Shown here: piece by piece, positions 1 through 14,035 of the stretch
Layout: each line of letters opens with the position of its first letter
Position numbering within the stretch: position 1 is the stretch's first letter
Source of the DNA: a virus
Taxonomy: Duplodnaviria; Heunggongvirae; Uroviricota; Caudoviricetes
Strand: one strand, 5' to 3'
DNA: 19,474 nt
Virus record (IMG/VR): IMGVR_UViG_2563366999_000007
Coordinates: 1 to 19,474 of that record
Notes under the pieces: generated by a model
Seen by the model: only the letters and a program-made list of their open reading frames with translations
Databases searched by the model: none
What the model was told of the DNA's origin: nothing
Made by a program: the position numbers and the translations under genes

Positions 1-526
1 TCAATTAATCAGCAGTTCAGGCTGTGTCACCTGCAAAATGTATTCATGCTCGACAGCCAGGACACGCTTCTCTCTCTTCCGTTCGTTCATTAACCGACTG
101 CCGATCGTACCTTTCAGCTTTGAGCGTGTTTCTTTGATGGCGTAGCGGTGCTGCATTTCTTCGCCAATTGCCATGCGGCGGCTCAGTTGCTCTGCCATCC
201 AGTTGAATGCTGCGATATAGCTCTCCTTGATTGCCGCAGCAGCTTTCCCGGTGAACCCCATCACAACCATGATCCAGCCATCTTTCGTCAGGCTGTACAT
301 CGGGCGAACCTTGCCCTGCTCATCGATATAATCAGCCGACGCAAAATTGCGTTGGCTAAACTCACGCGAGCAATCAGCCTTAACCTGCTCGATTTTCCTG
401 AGAACATCACCGTGTCGCTTGCCGAAGTACTTGGCAATTTTTCTGGATGTGGTAACGACCTCTCCGTTTTTGGCTTGCACCATTTCTCGGAAGTCGAAGG
501 CTGGAATAACTGAATGATTATTCATA
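1..526 (-). CDS. Rha-family phage regulatory protein / putative antirepressor
   Basis: ORF 1..561 (-); preferred start is the ATG at 526..524 (MNNHSVIP...), preceded by AAGG. The N-terminal motif TTSRKIAKYFGKRHGDVLRKI is typical of the Rha family. Stop TGA at 3..1. Confidence 0.7.
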
Positions 527-666
527 GCGTCTTTACCTTTTAGAAAGTGAGCCTGTCTCACAGAAAAGCCGCCCGAGAGAGGTCGCCACCTATAACGGCA
601 TTTCTCAGGCTCGCTTACTGAAAGGCTCTCGTTAATATGCGCGTGAGATGCGCGTTTACTGCGGAC

Positions 667-693
667 ATAAAAAAGCCCCGCATCGCGAGGCTC
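667..693 (-). terminator. Rho-independent terminator downstream of Rz/Rz1
   Basis: Minus strand reads GCCTCGCGATGCGGGGC followed by TTTTTTAT: a GC-rich 7-bp stem (one mismatch), 3-nt loop, then a U-run, immediately after the Rz stop at 724. Confidence 0.6.
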
Positions 694-723
694 ATTAAAT
701 TGACTTTGTGATTTGCAAAAAAA

Positions 724-1191
724 TTATTTCAGGCATTGCGTCCTGATGTACTCCTGAAGCGTTCTCAGTGCTGTTTGGTCACGGATAATTCCGTCCCGGA
801 TACCGAGAACGTTTCGTCCAGCAACTGGAGAGAGTTCGACGGTGGCATCATTGCCCATGCCGGAGGCGCTGGAGGTTTCGGCTGAGGATGGCACAGAGCA
901 TTTTCCTTTGACGAGCACCCGACCACCATTATCAAGCTTGCGCCGAAGAGCATCATTTTCAGCTTTCGCATCAGCCAACTCCTTCGTGTATTTAGCATCG
1001 AGTACATCAGCAGCACGCTGGCGTTGCTGCATGTCAGTAATGGTGGCGGTCGCCTGCTTCAGCTCACTGACTTTTTTATCACGCTGCTCTTTGTAGGCGA
1101 TGGCGTTATCACGGTAATGATTAACAGCCCATGACAGGCAGAGGATGATGCAAATAACCAGAGCGGAGATAATCGCGGTTACCCTGCTCAT
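724..1191 (-). CDS. Rz: i-spanin Rz (inner-membrane spanin subunit)
   Basis: [16 protein letters not shown]...[16 protein letters not shown] closely resembles lambda/21 Rz. The start overlaps the R stop (ATGA). Confidence 0.9.
765..971 (-). CDS. Rz1: o-spanin Rz1 (outer-membrane lipoprotein), embedded in Rz in the +1 frame
   Basis: [22 protein letters not shown]... has a lipobox (VVGC) and a Pro-rich segment ([11 protein letters not shown]), and lies wholly inside Rz in another frame. Confidence 0.8.
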
Positions 1192-1685
1192 TGCTGCCCC
1201 CACAAACAGACTTCACGCTCAATATCACGACGGGTCATCAGCCCTTTCCATTGCTTACCGCCAGCGTATGTCCAGCGACGTAGCTGGTCACATGCGCCTT
1301 TGATATCACCCTGGTTTATTTTGCGAAGAAGCGTCGATGTTCTGAAATTACCAGCGCCCACGTTGTAAACGAGCGAGTAAAGAGCGCCGCGCGTTGTTTC
1401 CGGTATATCGACTTTGATGTACGGGTTAATTTGTCTGGCGACCATGGCAAGGTCTTTATTCAGGAGGGCTTTGCATTCTGCTTCGGTATACGTTTTACCG
1501 GGAATGATGTCTTTTCCGGTGTGTCCGTGACATACAGTCCATACGCCAACGATATCTTCGTATGGTATGTAGCTGACACCTTCCAGGCCATCGTCACCAC
1601 TCGGACCAGTGATGAGCACAGACGCTATGGCAACAGCCCCACCACCAATAGCAGCAGCAACAGCCTTGCGTAATGATGGCGACAT
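1188..1685 (-). CDS. R: SAR endolysin (phage-21 R-type lysozyme, GH24)
   Basis: 165 aa. The N-terminal signal-anchor-release segment ([20 protein letters not shown]) and the rest of the protein match phage 21 R almost throughout. The start overlaps the S stop (TAATG). Confidence 0.92.
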
Positions 1686-1900
1686 TATTCACCTCTCGCA
1701 GCCTTACGCTTATCTTCTTTAATCTTGAAATAAAGGTTTGTCAGATACGTCAGCAAGCCAAACACCAGGCTACCCAATACGCCTATTGCCACCCACTGGG
1801 ATGGGGAGACTTTGTCCAGCAACTGCAGTAGCCAGTATCCCGTCCCCACCGCTGACGTGGTGTATGACACACCTGTTGTGATTTTTTCCATCTGGTACAT
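1685..1900 (-). CDS. S: Pinholin S21-type (holin/antiholin, dual start)
   Basis: 71 aa from [10 protein letters not shown]... The dual-start motif (Met1 and Met4) and two TM segments match phage 21 S21 (...[40 protein letters not shown]). GGGAG ribosome-binding site upstream. Confidence 0.9.
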
Positions 1901-2308
1901 ACCCCGTCTCCCGTTATCCGGAAGCTGACAACAATAAAAAGCCACCAGTTAATTCCTGATGGCCCTGATGCATAAACGTCATAATACCTGACTGTTATGA
2001 TTGACAATAATGATAATGTTTATATAGAAAGGTTCCCGATGTGTGTTACATATCATTTCTCCACGGGGAATATCCCCACGCCAGCGCAGACTCTTTTACC
2101 CGTTCTCTTCTGCGCTGGCTCTTTTTTATTATGCTGCTGCATTTACCTCTGGCACCAGGCTTTCTATCTCAACACAATACGTGGTACTTCTTGTAACCAA
2201 TATCATAACGATTAATCGACATAGAATTTCTCCCGTGTACAGGAACAGAGTTAAAAAGCCGGAACCGGAATCAAATCACAGGATGACCATCTGCCAGTGG
2301 CAGGTCAT

Positions 2309-2335
2309 AAAAAAAAGGCCGCGCCATGCGCAGCC
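2309..2335 (-). terminator. Strong intrinsic terminator on the late-transcript strand (candidate tR' equivalent)
   Basis: Minus strand: GGCTGCGCATGGCGCGGCC, a GC-rich 8-bp stem with one mismatch and a 3-nt loop, followed by eight T (plus-strand A-run 2309..2316). Confidence 0.6.
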
Positions 2336-2521
2336 AGAACTCACAAGGAAAATGATAGAAGGAAATAACATTAGTGATGTACGCATGGCGCCTCCCGCTA
2401 AGTTCTGCAATGATCAAACAGAACTCGCTACGTGCCCTTAAAACTCGATCATTTAGCCCCTCCAAGGAGGATTCACCATGCGGTTGATTTTTTAATAAAC
2501 AGTAAACAAAAAAGTCAAGGA

Positions 2522-2632
2522 TTATTCATTCTGTTTTTTCATCATCGGCCACAGCAATACCACAATGCCGCAGACCAGAGCGCCATCAGTCAGTACCAAC
2601 ATTATCCTGCTGGTGAAATCCATCATCACCAT
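2522..2632 (-). CDS. Hypothetical small hydrophobic peptide (about 33-36 aa)
   Basis: Minus-strand ORF M(VMM)DFTSRIMLVLTDGALVCGIVVLLWPMMKKQNE*, with in-frame TTG/GTG codons extending it upstream. No clear Shine-Dalgarno sequence; may be spurious. Confidence 0.2.
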   Translation of the reverse strand: MVMMDFTSRIMLVLTDGALVCGIVVLLWPMMKKQNE

Positions 2633-2765
2633 CACTAAAAGCAGGATCACAACAGCAAGCAGACACAGTTTATAAAACAATGTTCAGAAAACGCATTCAG
2701 CATGCCTAAGGTTCTATTCCTACGAATAGCCAACTTGCAACTTAAAATATTATTTATGCAGCCAA

Positions 2766-3524
2766 TTAAATTCTGGTCCTTACAATATCAACCTGAAGAT
2801 TCTTATCTTGTGCTGATTGATAAATGACAAACCTTTTACTACCTGCATTGAAAGAAGTAGACAAAACCAGACAATTATCATAACGAGCAAGAACATAATA
2901 CCAACCATCATTATAATTAATCATTTCATATTCTTTCTTAAACTGCGGTTTGTAATATCCTGTCAGAAATGAAAAAAGCCAGAAATATGCCACAAAAGCA
3001 ATCATCACAATCTCAAAAAAATGTTTTTTTATAAATGGCTTATCATAGAAGCATGATACCGATAAAAATCGCCCATAAGATCTTATCGAAATTGTAACCG
3101 CCAGCGCAATCGCTGCTGACAGTAGCAAAAGAGGTACCTGAATCTTCTGTCTCAATATAGAAAACTCAATAATTGCCGGCACAAACAATAATTCCACAGC
3201 AAAATAAAGGCGAAATACATTTAGCTCTTGCATAGAATGTTTTCTTTTCACTGCGAAAAAGAATACAACACCAATACCCCAACCGATAAGAAATATAGCA
3301 ATGACGATAACTGCAAAAAATAAACTTCTGGCAACATCATCAACACCTGCACCTACAATCCACCATGGGAAGCCGTAGTAAAAAGAAGTACCCCATCCAT
3401 AGAAATAAGCACTCCCCCATCCAAGGCATCCCATGTAGGCAATAAAAAGTGAAGAACTCCTGAGCAGCGCACCATCCTTCATAACCACCCCAATACAAGA
3501 TGATAACATTGGCTTACAACTCAT
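2766..3524 (-). CDS. Hypothetical polytopic membrane protein (moron between Q/pR' and the lysis cassette)
   Basis: 252-aa ORF in AT-rich DNA with about five hydrophobic helices rich in F/Y/W and a roughly 50-aa hydrophilic C-terminus. I recognise no family. Start is uncertain (ATG at 3524, or 3482 at MKDGALL). Confidence 0.6.
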   Translation of the reverse strand: MSCKPMLSSCIGVVMKDGALLRSSSLFIAYMGCLGWGSAYFYGWGTSFYYGFPWWIVGAGVDDVARSLFFAVIVIAIFLIGWGIGVVFFFAVKRKHSMQELNVFRLYFAVELLFVPAIIEFSILRQKIQVPLLLLSAAIALAVTISIRSYGRFLSVSCFYDKPFIKKHFFEIVMIAFVAYFWLFSFLTGYYKPQFKKEYEMINYNDGWYYVLARYDNCLVLSTSFNAGSKRFVIYQSAQDKNLQVDIVRTRI

Positions 3525-3679
3525 AACAAAAGCAATTCAATGCCGTCAAGAGGTTACAGGCTAAAAAAACTCTATTACATTGCAGTCAGCATGTTTACTA
3601 CACAAATACAATTCAGAGCATAAAAACTACTCGGCGGCAGGTTATTGAGACTCATCAATGACATGTAAAAAACGCCCAT

Positions 3680-3725
3680 TATTGGTGTCAAGTTTCCCCA
3701 AAGTTATTCAAAAAGTCAATATTAT
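3680..3725 (-). promoter_or_regulatory. Late promoter pR' with Q-utilisation (qut) region
   Basis: Minus strand reads GGCATAATATTGACTTTTTGAATAACTTTGGGGAAACTTGACACCAATAATGGG, which parallels the lambda pR'/qut segment (TTGACT -35, 17-bp spacer, then the pause-region TTGAC motif), about 45 bp after the Q stop. Confidence 0.6.
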
Positions 3726-3761
3726 GCCGTTAATATGTTGCCATCCGTGGCAATCATGGCG

Positions 3762-4385
3762 CTAACGTGTGATCGCATTCAAAATGTTGTCTGCGATTGA
3801 CTCTTCCTTGTGGCATTGCACAACCAGAGCGTCATACAGCGGCTTAACAGTGCGTGACCAGGTGGGTTGGGTAAGGTTTGGGATTAGCATCGTCACAGCG
3901 CGATATGCGGCGCTTGCTGGCATTCTTGAATAACCGACGCCTTTACATCTTCCGCACTCTTTCTCAGCAACTATCCCCCACTGCTCTGTTTTGGCTATAT
4001 CAACCGCACGGCCTGTACCGTGGCAATCTCTGCATCTTGCGCCCGGCGTAGCGGCACTACGGCAATAATCCGCATAAGCGAATGTTGCGAGCACTTGCAG
4101 TACCTTTGCCTTAGTATTTCCTTCAAGCTTTGCCACGCCACGGTATTTCCCCGATACCTTGTGTGCAAATTGCATCAGATAGTTGATAGCCTTTTGTTTG
4201 TCGTTCTGGCTGAGTTCGTGCTTACCGCAGAATGCAGCCATTCCGAATCCGGCTTGTGATTGCGCCATCCCCATAGCAGCCATCACATCAGTACCGGAAA
4301 GAGAGTCAGAAGCCGTAGCCCGTGGTGAGTCGCTCATCATCGGGCTTTTTGGCGAATGAAATTTAGCTACGCTTTCGAGTCTCAT
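3762..4385 (-). CDS. Q: Late-gene antiterminator Q (lambda type)
   Basis: 207 aa, [31 protein letters not shown]..., essentially identical to lambda Q over its length. Confidence 0.97.
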
Positions 4386-5047
4386 GCGCCTTCTCCCTGT
4401 ACCTGAATCAATGTGAGGTTTCCGCAGAACACTGCGCCAGTATCGATATACATCTGGTTGGCAAATTTGAGTGGTTTCACTGCTGGCGTATGACCAAAGA
4501 TAAACGTGTCCGCGCCTTTAATTTCTTTCACGATCCCGTCTTGTGAGTTGCTGATTCGTTCGCGGTTCCAGATTACCTGCTGATGATCAACTGGCTTTCC
4601 AAATTCGTATTCGTCACAAGGATAATCGGCGTGGCAGATGACATATTTTTTACCTTTGCTCACCAGTTCGATGATTAACGGAAGTTCTTCTGCTTTATGG
4701 GCAAGAGCTTTAGCCAGAATTTCTTTGTCGTAATCGAGATTAAAGAACCAGCCACCGCCATTAAGCAGCCAGTGATTGACGTTTCCACGCTCTGATAAGC
4801 CATCAATCATCATTTGCTCATGGTTTCCACGTACAGCTCTGAACCAGGGGAATGTGATTAATTCCAGGCATTCTACGTTCTCTGTACCGCGATCAACCAA
4901 ATCGCCCACCGAGATAAGCAGGTCTTTTTTGGTGTCGAATCCTATCGTCTCCAGTTTTTTCATCAGGTTCGTGTAGCATCCGTGCAGATCGCCAACTACC
5001 CAAATATTTCGGTATTTGCTGCCATCAATTCTTTCGTAGATATTCAT
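4382..5047 (-). CDS. ninI: Ser/Thr protein phosphatase (lambda orf221 / NinI)
   Basis: 221 aa, [25 protein letters not shown]...GNHE... carries the metallophosphatase motifs (GDLHG, GDLVDRG, GNHE) and matches lambda PP. Confidence 0.95.
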
Positions 5048-5649
5048 GCAACCTCACTTCTGCTGTTTCGCAGTTTTTTAAGTTTCTGTTGATACTCCGC
5101 CTTGATGGCCCTGCACTCTTCGACAGTCCAGCGATAGCGGTTATGGTTTGATTCGATTTCCTCTACTGCTACCTGCCCGATGCCGCTAATCAGTTCGACG
5201 CGATACGGAACGAGATTTCCGCTTTTGTGCTGGTTGCACACCACGCATTGCTTGTGAATATTGCGTTCATCAAATCGGAGTTGAGGTGCCGCAGCAGTTG
5301 TCCGGTAATGTCCGGCATCCCACTGAGCAGACGTGAGCGTTCCGCACGAGATACATGGTAAGTCGCGGTCTCTTTCTCTGATGAAGGCGTTTACGGCTTG
5401 TTGGGCTTGCTTAATCCAGTAACTGCGGGGCTTTAAGGCGAGTTTTCGAATCTTAAGTTTATCTTTCTGTTTCTGTTCATCTCGTCGTCGTTTCTTCTCT
5501 GCTGCTTTTTCCGCTTTTTCGCGTTCTTTACTTCGTCGTTCGAGTGCTAATTGAGTTCCGTGTTCCGGGCAGCACCACCACTGATTTGAGAATGCCGGGT
5601 GAAACCATTCCTTGCATATTTTGCATTTCCTTCGCGCTGGTTTAGCCAT
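5044..5649 (-). CDS. ninG: NinG (Rap) recombination-associated protein
   Basis: 201 aa, [18 protein letters not shown]..., strong match to lambda NinG. Its start overlaps the ninF stop. Confidence 0.93.
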
Positions 5650-5812
5650 CGTCTTCTTCCTCGTACATTGAGCTATTCGGATCGCTCATCAGTTCTGCGC
5701 AGCAATCGGAGCACACGTGAACTTCCAGCACATGCAGCTTCTGACCGCAGTTAGCGCACGTTAAAGCTCGCTCGACGCTTTCTTGTTCGTAACTTCGATT
5801 TTGGTCAATCAC
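5642..5812 (-). CDS. ninF: NinF
   Basis: Hand-translated 56 aa (GTG start with GAGGA ribosome-binding site): (M)[55 protein letters not shown], matching lambda NinF. Below the ORF-track length cutoff. Confidence 0.8.
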
Positions 5813-13798: not shown

Positions 13799-13870
13799 AC
13801 GCGGCGTTACCGCATACCAATTACGCTTCACTCGAGGCGTTTTTCGTTATGTATAAATAAGGAGCACACC

Positions 13871-14035
13871 ATGCAATATGCCATTGCAGGGTGGCCTGTT
13901 GCTGGCTGCCCTTCCGAATCTTTACTTGAACGAATTACCCGTAAATTACGTGACGGATGGAAACGCCTTATCGACATACTTAATCAGCCAGGAGTCCCGA
14001 AAAATGGATCAAACAATTATGGCTATCCAGACTAA
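13871..14035 (+). CDS. cIII: CIII (FtsH/HflB protease inhibitor)
   Basis: Hand-translated 54 aa: [54 protein letters not shown], matches lambda CIII. Below the ORF-track cutoff. Confidence 0.9.
   Translation: MQYAIAGWPVAGCPSESLLERITRKLRDGWKRLIDILNQPGVPKNGSNNYGYPD

Follow-up and report, generated by a model that had tools for sequence, protein, structure and literature searches.

A three-gene cassette ending at the PasD1 terminator, behind an apparently decayed tR' hairpin, in the late-control region of a lambda-type prophage

The late promoter of lambda-type phages, pR', is constitutive and its antiterminator Q acts only after initiation (established lambda biology, restated in PMC7547250); what, then, becomes of a cargo gene that lies directly behind such a promoter with no terminator in between? 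This question is raised by a 19,474-nt stretch of viral DNA (IMG/VR record IMGVR_UViG_2563366999_000007), here called the window, to the whole of which all positions refer. Read on the minus strand, its positions 1-5650 make up the end of a lambdoid prophage that is devoted to late control and lysis, with NinG, a PP1-type phosphatase, Q, an AT-rich interval, the lysis genes and a Rha-family regulator in this order. A preliminary description of the window had proposed that a membrane protein encoded in the AT-rich interval is made in lysogens by read-through from pR', with the lysis genes beyond the first strong terminator left dependent on Q. Our analysis leads to a somewhat different answer. 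The interval between Q/pR' and the lysis genes holds three genes (Table 1), namely a large open reading frame (ORF) of the TfpB/STM1630 family, a small ORF of the DUF3927 family and the gene for the small RNA (sRNA) PasD1, and we think it probable, though by no means certain, that they form a lysogenic-conversion cassette with promoters of its own, for which read-through past a decayed tR' hairpin is an add-on and whose large protein has a role in the envelope or in host adaptation.

An intrinsic tR' is expected in a lambda-type module within about 200 nt of the transcription start and ahead of any gene, and the window has none there. A consensus terminator scan detected nothing between 3525 and 3690, that is, from pR' to the large ORF, and the leader folds no more stably than shuffled sequence (z -0.7 to +0.6), in agreement with the preliminary description. 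C is scarce in the leader (15% C, 22% G over 190 nt), so Rho-dependent termination is not expected in it either, and an extended AT-rich fold within the large ORF, at about +707 (folding energy, dG, -9.4 over 62 nt), was dismissed as a terminator. To put this in perspective, one uniform scan was run on the window, phage 2B8, prophage PP4 of enteropathogenic Escherichia coli (EPEC) and seven other phages with lambda-type Q/pR', with distances from the pR' start that are accurate to about 2 nt. All seven of the other phages have a strong terminator near pR', and HK97, HK022, Emek and phiKp_30 have the first one at about +54, lambda, HK446 and Kapi1 theirs at +187; the first compact terminator of the window, 2B8 and PP4 comes at about +1368. 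This comparison of the Q-to-S interval sets the latter three clearly apart, and since the seven comparison phages without exception terminate at one of two positions, the gap is real rather than a chance one: the absence of tR' is unusual for lambda-Q phages.

What the window does have at this place appears to be the remnant of a terminator (Table 1). The homologous hairpin is intact in phage 434 and in CP-933K of strain EDL933 (AAACCCGCUGCCGAGUGGG followed by U7/8; an annotated terminator in 434), with a dG of -9.0 kcal/mol, or -12.2/-13.3 with an A-U extension, compared with -1.5 for the window's remnant. In locus L114, which represents a third lineage with another Q, the hairpin is ACCCGCGACCGAGCGGGU plus U5 (dG -9.8), and its differences from that of 434 are compensatory changes that preserve the pairing. 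EPEC prophage PP2 (L120, 2992-3020) has a Q82-type hairpin that is weakened by a change of GGG to GG (dG -5.5 as against -9.0, with U9), and the natural alleles, judged by their folds, thus span intact, weakened and decayed forms. The 101 loci with the cargo's upstream region fall into two clean classes, one of about 62 with a lambda-type pR' and a decayed hairpin and one of about 40 with a Q82-type pR' and an intact hairpin; none of the lambda-type loci among the 101 has an intact one. Three IMG/VR loci (L027, L030 and L037) join a lambda-type pR' and decayed hairpin to downstream polymorphisms of the Q82 allele, and recombination breakpoints must therefore lie within the roughly 60 nt just past the hairpin. 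Because of these two allele classes and the homologous hairpins of the relatives, tR' would have been lost here rather than never present, its absence being, on this comparative evidence, the loss of a terminator that the relatives of the cargo keep. Measured against the 434 hairpin, the decay amounts to several mutations in both arms and a 4-nt deletion.

The terminator that does end the interval had been placed correctly in the preliminary description, which nevertheless missed both its identity and the DUF3927 ORF ahead of it. Its hairpin (2317-2335) has the form GGCUGCGC-AUG-GCGCGGCC followed by U8, with a dG of -14 to -16 and a z of -2.5. As the minus strand from 2481 to 2309 is identical throughout to PasD1 of EPEC E2348/69 (NC_011601 1060260-1060432, coordinates from Table S6 of PMC8550237), the element at 2309-2335 is the PasD1 terminator; the first strong terminator after pR' is hence, by sequence, PasD1's own 3' end, and it closes the cassette. 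According to the published EPEC study (PMC8550237), PasD1 and PasD2 are abundant Hfq-binding sRNAs seen on a Northern blot with one shared probe, the Pas sRNAs depend on Hfq for stability and RIL-seq gives them many targets; the 3' end of PasD1 was estimated there from RNA-seq, with its size backed by the Northern blot. A 2026 preprint by Zhu, Shabalina and Storz treats PasD as a distant relative of Rfam STnc100 and reports that PasD1 adjoins a holin/lysozyme operon near a PF03589 Q, often near Esr41. Consistent with that distant relationship, the Rfam model RF02076 (STnc100) matches 2306-2511 over its full length with 37.7 bits, below its gathering score of 47.

Several smaller elements lie in and around the PasD1 gene. 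A TTGACT at 2518-2513 is suitably spaced from the reported 5' end at 2481 and is a candidate -35 element of a PasD1 promoter, its -10 being unclear. A short ORF, MRTSLMLFPSIIFLVSSGC..., at about 2276-2386 on the minus strand lies inside PasD1 behind a strong GGGAGG ribosome-binding site and crosses the PasD1 terminator, such that it is complete only on read-through transcripts; the annotators of phage 434 call a 62-aa membrane protein at this position, and the lipobox-like motif of the ORF was rejected as non-canonical. On the opposite strand, a 132-aa ORF (2043-2441) runs antisense to PasD1 and is called by PGAP at the same position in loci of the same layout (WP_033816266.1, WP_012578864.1; E2348C_1013 in EPEC). 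It is likely to be spurious, and the RNA-seq count of 2064 published for it in EPEC probably reflects PasD1 signal. Between the PasD1 terminator and the holin gene, and convergent with the late operon, there is an Esr41-like element with an 11-bp GC-rich stem, a long loop and a U-tract, which may be an sRNA gene of the PasA/PasC/Esr41 type.

With respect to its composition and position, the cassette resembles a moron. The GC content of the large ORF is 0.32-0.39 compared with about 0.50 in its flanks, which bears out the AT-richness noted earlier; the insert of deviant GC stands between conserved genes, has its own downstream terminator and is absent from lambda, HK97, HK022, HK446, Emek, Kapi1 and phiKp_30, all of which have the same Q type. 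Expression from a repressed prophage, another mark of such elements, is documented by published RNA-seq of PP4, albeit in a strain other than the window's.

These RNA-seq data (DESeq2 BaseMean values for uninduced EPEC E2348/69 in the activating condition, Table S2 of PMC8550237) are informative since PP4 has the layout and allele of the window, with one mismatch in the 744-nt ORF region. The published BaseMean values for PP4 are 6.0 for Q, 147 for the TfpB-family ORF, 8652 for pasD1, 5.4 for the holin and 3.9 for the lysozyme gene; DUF3927 is not listed and there is no esterase gene. The cassette is thus transcribed in uninduced lysogens, with Q and the lysis genes of PP4 about 25-fold below the ORF, as the preliminary description had predicted. 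In the Q82-type prophage PP2 of the same strain the corresponding values are 69 for Q82, 226 for the ORF, 37 for DUF3927, 11017 for pasD2, 102 for the esterase, 3.5 for the holin and 3.2 for the lysozyme gene. That PP2, which has kept its hairpin, is expressed at least as well as PP4 argues that the cassette RNAs come mainly from promoters inside the cassette. The same study reports 57 RIL-seq chimeras between the large-ORF mRNA and the prophage sRNA PasA.

Where might such a promoter of the large ORF lie? A candidate is the promoter-like element TTGACG (3549-3544), N18, TG-T-TATGAG (3525-3520). The pattern TTGAC(G/T)-N18-TATGnn stands 67-68 nt ahead of the ATG in the window, in phage 434, in L114 and in a plasmid copy of enterotoxigenic E. 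coli (ETEC) beside eltAB, a copy with neither Q nor pR' in its vicinity, and at -74 on the chromosome of Citrobacter rodentium; counted over diverged homologue loci, a motif of this type, defined post hoc and without the T at -7, occurs at a fixed distance in 4 of 7. This conservation is suggestive only of a promoter belonging to the ORF. In Salmonella, a transcription start and a -10 box belonging to STM1630 itself have been mapped at another place than the motif, with a distant promoter (PMC6785131). Two other readings of this stretch were set aside: a CII site (TTGT-N6-TTGT, from the 434 annotation), whose spacing to any -10 differs from that of lambda pRE/pI, and a PhoP box, which it matches poorly.

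Taken together, these data lead us to the following tentative picture. A cassette for a TfpB/STM1630-family protein, a DUF3927 protein and the Hfq-dependent PasD1 would have entered a lambda-type prophage between Q/pR' and the lysis genes, with the large ORF and PasD1 each driven by a promoter of its own; such promoters would explain both the equal expression behind a kept terminator and the fact that members of the family function outside prophages. In 434-type prophages a short tR' hairpin stands between pR' and the cassette; in the window's allele this hairpin would have decayed, and because of this decay RNA polymerase from the constitutive pR' probably runs some 1.37 kb through the cassette, as far as the PasD1 terminator. 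This terminator would be backed up by a second one, immediately ahead of the holin gene, the two keeping lysis dependent on Q, and read-through would be a supplement to cassette expression and not its main source.

Central to the supplementary part of this picture is whether the window's pR' works at all without Q. It should, since all of the lambda elements are kept and the same promoter serves the sequenced phage 2B8. The pR'/qut announced by the preliminary description is present, and its alignment with lambda shows the same -35 (TTGACT, 3719-3714), a 17-nt spacer with the Q-binding element and three changes, the TTGAC -35-like element and, as the sigma-dependent pause element of the early transcribed region, a pause-inducing AATAAT+GGG (3683-3675) where lambda has AACGAT-GGG; by analogy the transcript would start at about 3683/3684. 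The -10 is GAAACT (3696-3691) in place of lambda's TAAATT, and with only three of six positions matching the consensus the promoter was not listed by the promoter scan.

Several observations weigh against the picture just given. With a -10 weaker than that of lambda, the constitutive activity of the window's pR' could be low. The promoter-like motif lacks the conserved T at -7, was derived after the sequences had been seen and does not occur in the copies of Salmonella and Shigella. The ORF copies of PP2 and PP4 differ at only 3 of 744 nt, which makes the assignment of reads between them ambiguous, and the PP2 hairpin is itself weakened (dG -5.5, U9), so that leakage from a strong pR'82 could explain the expression of PP2.

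It is therefore pertinent to ask whether constitutive pR' might after all be the main source, reading a leader mRNA of about 1.37 kb that ends at 2309, as the preliminary description supposed. Read-through is a plausible contributor to the expression in lysogens, but it is probably not the main driver, and as the principal explanation we regard it as rather doubtful. The absence of any terminator from +1 to the ORF, the retention of every pR' element and a C-poor leader in which a Rho-loading site is unlikely all speak for it, as does the published profile of PP4, where transcription rises about 25-fold from Q to the ORF and falls again past the PasD1 terminator. On the other hand, PP2, with a Q82-type promoter and a kept hairpin, has equal or higher published levels of ORF and PasD RNA, the promoter-like motif is conserved in a plasmid copy without pR', and a pR' of lambda strength should give an ORF level far above a BaseMean of 147. 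Moreover, the cassette also lies behind intact terminators in L114, 434 and CP-933K, and from its working behind an intact tR' in the latter two it follows that the cargo module is in general independent of read-through. The specific claim that the protein is made by pR' read-through thus finds no support in these comparisons.

The decay of the hairpin could also be a matter of drift, with late regulation irrelevant to the prophages concerned and no regulatory consequence, and the distribution of the locus gives this view some substance. At least 80% of the region 2250-3800 (from the 3' end of Q through the PasD1 terminator) is present in 682 of 5426 complete E. coli genomes, among them those of O157:H7, O111 and EPEC strains, and the exact junction of pR' and cargo in 572 of the 5426, including O157:H7 Sakai Sp17, strain 86-24 and EPEC E2348/69 PP4; the Sakai copy had been sought in Sp4 and near Sp5 and was found in Sp17. 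This is essentially one clonally spread haplotype (557 of 573 genomes at least 99% identical), and many carriers are defective, the locus in Sakai Sp17 and 86-24 being full of insertion sequence elements, all of which would suit drift. Yet the same allele is carried by the 48.8-kb sequenced phage 2B8 and by the window, both with intact Q and lysis genes and the latter also with an element of the immunity region; the lysis genes remain protected by two strong terminators, which means that regulation has been preserved; and the decay required not one lesion but changes on both arms as well as the deletion. We consider purely neutral decay unlikely.

A bolder reading, which we mention as a speculation that is probably wrong, is that the loss of tR' has made the late leader a constitutive 1.37-kb operon from which pR' would transcribe both membrane genes in every lysogen, the PasD1 terminator being the operative tR', part of the PasD1 pool a processed 3' end and the hairpin alleles a graded series that tunes the cargo. 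If it were true, this operon would be a coding and enlarged counterpart of lambda 6S RNA or of the StxS of Shiga toxin (Stx) phages. In lambda pR'-tR'/6S RNA and in StxS (PMC7547250) a constitutive late promoter likewise gives a transcript that stops at the first terminator unless Q is present, and the stopped product can be a functional RNA; that product is, however, non-coding and 194-258 nt long, whereas the interval of the window spans about 1.37 kb with two ORFs and an sRNA, probably with promoters of their own.

The large ORF itself is real, but the 252-aa frame given for it (2766..3524) is only the longest reading. The start is most likely at 3482, giving 238 aa, because all homologues begin there, the ribosome-binding site GGGGTGG lies directly ahead and the ATG at 3524 sits within the promoter-like -10. 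The statement that the protein belongs to no recognized family proved wrong: PF27470 'TfpB' is recorded on all 108 of 108 homologues, among them a cluster representative that is 100% identical across the full query, the 238-aa protein WP_001299184.1 of a locus with the same layout (L003, 99.7% DNA identity) is named 'STM1630 family protein' by NCBI, and PHROGs places the ORF in phrog_1521, a family of unknown function. The match to the Salmonella STM1630-type protein (P0074) covers 100% of the query at 1e-70, with 46% identity over the full length. Our Pfam, NCBIfam and PADLOC scans gave the ORF no family, the Pfam and NCBIfam copies used being older than PF27470, and in Pfam only DUF4501 came up, weakly (E 0.23).

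The predicted architecture is as had been expected, namely about five transmembrane (TM) helices and a soluble C-terminus. An AlphaFold2 model built on 22 close homologues only was too poor (pLDDT 59); after the addition of ten distant homologues the resulting set of 33 sequences, which includes relatives from Pasteurellaceae and Neisseria, gave a pLDDT of 78.8 and a pTM of 0.72, with five long helices and a five-strand C-terminal beta domain. Conservation is highest in an N-terminal stretch rich in aromatic residues and glycine, AY..G.LGWGSAYFYGWG.S.YYGFPWW, after which comes a conserved ARSL motif. The distribution of charges would place the N-terminus in the cytoplasm and the beta domain in the periplasm. 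Salmonella STM1630 has the same length, five TM helices, beta domain and motifs, but differs in that its gene is on the chromosome, between steB and sseJ, and has its own, distant promoter.

In prophages the genes of this family stand behind at least three, and probably four, antiterminator families. They adjoin LpxR in 434, CP-933K, EPEC PP2, the C. rodentium chromosome and loci L111-L113, with PmrD also near in one of these, L112, and on ETEC plasmids they adjoin eltAB, which encodes the LT toxin. The recurrence of lpxR in prophages and the C. rodentium chromosome alike hints at a functional link to the remodelling of lipid A. Transposon mutants of STM1630 are reported to be attenuated in calves and chickens (PMC6785131 S1 Text), and clean deletions to grow normally and to replicate normally in macrophages (PMC6785131). 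From these contexts (LpxR, eltAB, sseJ and diverse antiterminators) and the Salmonella attenuation, we think it most likely, though we make the case lightly, that the protein works on the cell envelope in a manner relevant to host colonization, and not in phage lysis or in a dedicated exclusion function.

The preliminary description had also offered superinfection exclusion as the purpose of the cargo. That the cargo is expressed in lysogeny holds good; the exclusion part does not fare as well. A superinfection-exclusion or anti-phage factor would suit the position and lysogenic expression of the gene, which are like those of known exclusion morons, and the polytopic inner-membrane nature of the modelled protein, and the neighbouring DUF3927 protein carries the putative label 'TciB-like inhibition of cell division or resistance to colicin'. 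Against it, none of the three ORFs gave a hit at E <= 0.1 among the defence-system models of PADLOC, family members are chromosomal or plasmid-borne beside the virulence genes sseJ, eltAB and LpxR, outside phages, with distant relatives in Pasteurellaceae and Neisseria, and the Salmonella member is linked to animal colonization; the idea is accordingly improbable. A late lytic function, for example as a lysis regulator merely upstream of the holin, is suggested by little except the Q-to-S location and the membrane nature of the protein, and it can practically be dismissed given that the ORF is expressed in published uninduced cultures with holin and lysozyme silent, that it matches no holin, antiholin, spanin or structural family in Pfam or PHROGs and nothing in PADLOC, that lambda, HK97, HK022 and further phages with this Q lack it, and that it has homologues outside phages.

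How much of the envelope-cargo reading is new? The cassette, its terminator and its sRNA are already known from the 434 annotation of 2022 and from the PasD1 reports of 2021 and 2026, and the protein family is named in Pfam and NCBI. The region 2250-3800 is 98.7-98.8% identical to phages 434 and 2B8. Phage 434 (GenBank OL657226, annotated 2022), CP-933K and EPEC PP2 carry the same cassette at 98-99% identity with the same PasD terminator and an S21-type lysis cassette after it; they differ in having an antiterminator and promoter of the Q82 type, a hairpin directly upstream of the cassette that is intact or nearly so, and LpxR upstream, and 434 and PP2, though not CP-933K, have a nanS-p/SASA esterase gene after PasD, as against the lambda Q/pR', decayed hairpin and missing esterase of the window. 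The window's sRNA is identical to PasD1 as described by Pearl Mizrahi et al. in 2021 (PMC8550237; EHEC homologue EcOnc13), and its PF03589 Q within 10 kb, its holin/lysozyme adjacency and its Esr41- and STnc100-like signals match the context given in the preprint. In the parts consulted, the PasD papers treat PasD as an intergenic sRNA gene, to which the present reading adds the upstream ORFs, the decayed tR' and the terminator as the first barrier after pR'; in the 434-type annotations and the PasD literature examined we found neither the loss of tR' by the lambda-Q allele nor the PasD1 terminator as the first pR' barrier. The arrangement is like that of classical morons (lambda bor and lom, HK97 gp15, or stx and nanS-p in the Q-to-S slot) in being an AT-rich, terminator-ended and prophage-expressed insert between conserved genes; unlike them, the cargo sits in a promoter-proximal late operon with no upstream terminator and with a promoter that is presumably its own. 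The decayed-tR' layout is best seen as a variant of a known arrangement, and its regulatory weight, on the EPEC numbers, is probably modest.

The locus nevertheless merits attention. The cassette is common, and it pairs a known virulence-associated sRNA with two uncharacterized membrane proteins, one of them from a family tied to animal colonization by Salmonella and found by the LT toxin, SseJ and LpxR. If the decayed hairpin does let pR' through, this would be a natural case of a single hairpin deciding whether a cargo is linked to lysogeny or to induction, and as both alleles coexist in standard strains its effect is directly testable; if there is no read-through, the locus is an ordinary moron that has already been annotated. 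Either way, functional work on the envelope-protein family PF27470 could reasonably be directed at the large ORF.

Table 1. Positions of the features discussed, in order along the minus strand of the window, with the evidence for each.
Feature	Position	Strand	Evidence
Q antiterminator, lambda type, 207 aa	3762..4385	-	PF03589 at 1.2e-57; 203/207 identical to lambda Q (98%)
pR'/qut late promoter	3675..3719	-	base-for-base alignment with lambda pR'
Putative decayed tR' remnant, AACCUGCCGCCGAGUAG plus U5, 4-bp stem, dG -1.5	3622..3643	-	homologous to intact hairpins of 434, CP-933K and L114
Promoter-like element	3520..3549	-	conserved motif; pattern defined post hoc
Predicted inner-membrane protein, 238 aa, PF27470 'TfpB'/'STM1630 family'; five TM helices and C-terminal beta domain	2766..3482	-	homologues, AlphaFold2 model
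DUF3927/TciB-like small membrane protein, 52 aa	2522..2680	-	PF13064 at 1.4e-14; phrog_1470 at 1.2e-17; called TciB in phage 434
PasD1 sRNA gene, 173 nt, including terminator 2309-2335	2309..2481	-	173/173 identical to EPEC E2348/69 PasD1
Esr41-like hairpin and U-tract, possible sRNA	2040..2129	+	weak match to RF02676 (32.3 bits, gathering score 102, E 3e-4)
Second intrinsic terminator, immediately ahead of the holin gene	1938..1966	-	dG -16.2, z -4.2; 434 has an annotated terminator just upstream of its holin gene
Lysis cassette: S21-type pinholin (1685-1900), signal-arrest-release (SAR) endolysin (1188-1685), Rz (724-1191)	724..1900	-	PF04971 at 2e-32, PF00959 at 1.6e-44, annotation of same-layout loci

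Some minor features of the remaining sequence may be added. In 434, 2B8, Sakai Sp17 and EPEC PP2, PasD and the holin gene are separated by a 1.85-kb gene for a nanS-p/SASA sialate esterase. This gene is absent from the window (1946-2308, compared with L001, L002, L110 and L120), which shares its esterase-less 'PasD1-type' layout with EPEC PP4; the esterase of 2B8 has a shorter annotated coding sequence, with a mobile element after it. Inside Rz, an ORF in another frame (765-1016, minus strand) with a lipoprotein-like start is the expected Rz1 o-spanin gene. Finally, a lambda cIII thermoregulator element (RF01804, 88.5 bits, exceeding the gathering score) is found on the plus strand at 13858-13916, which means that the window also contains the immunity/early-left region of the prophage.

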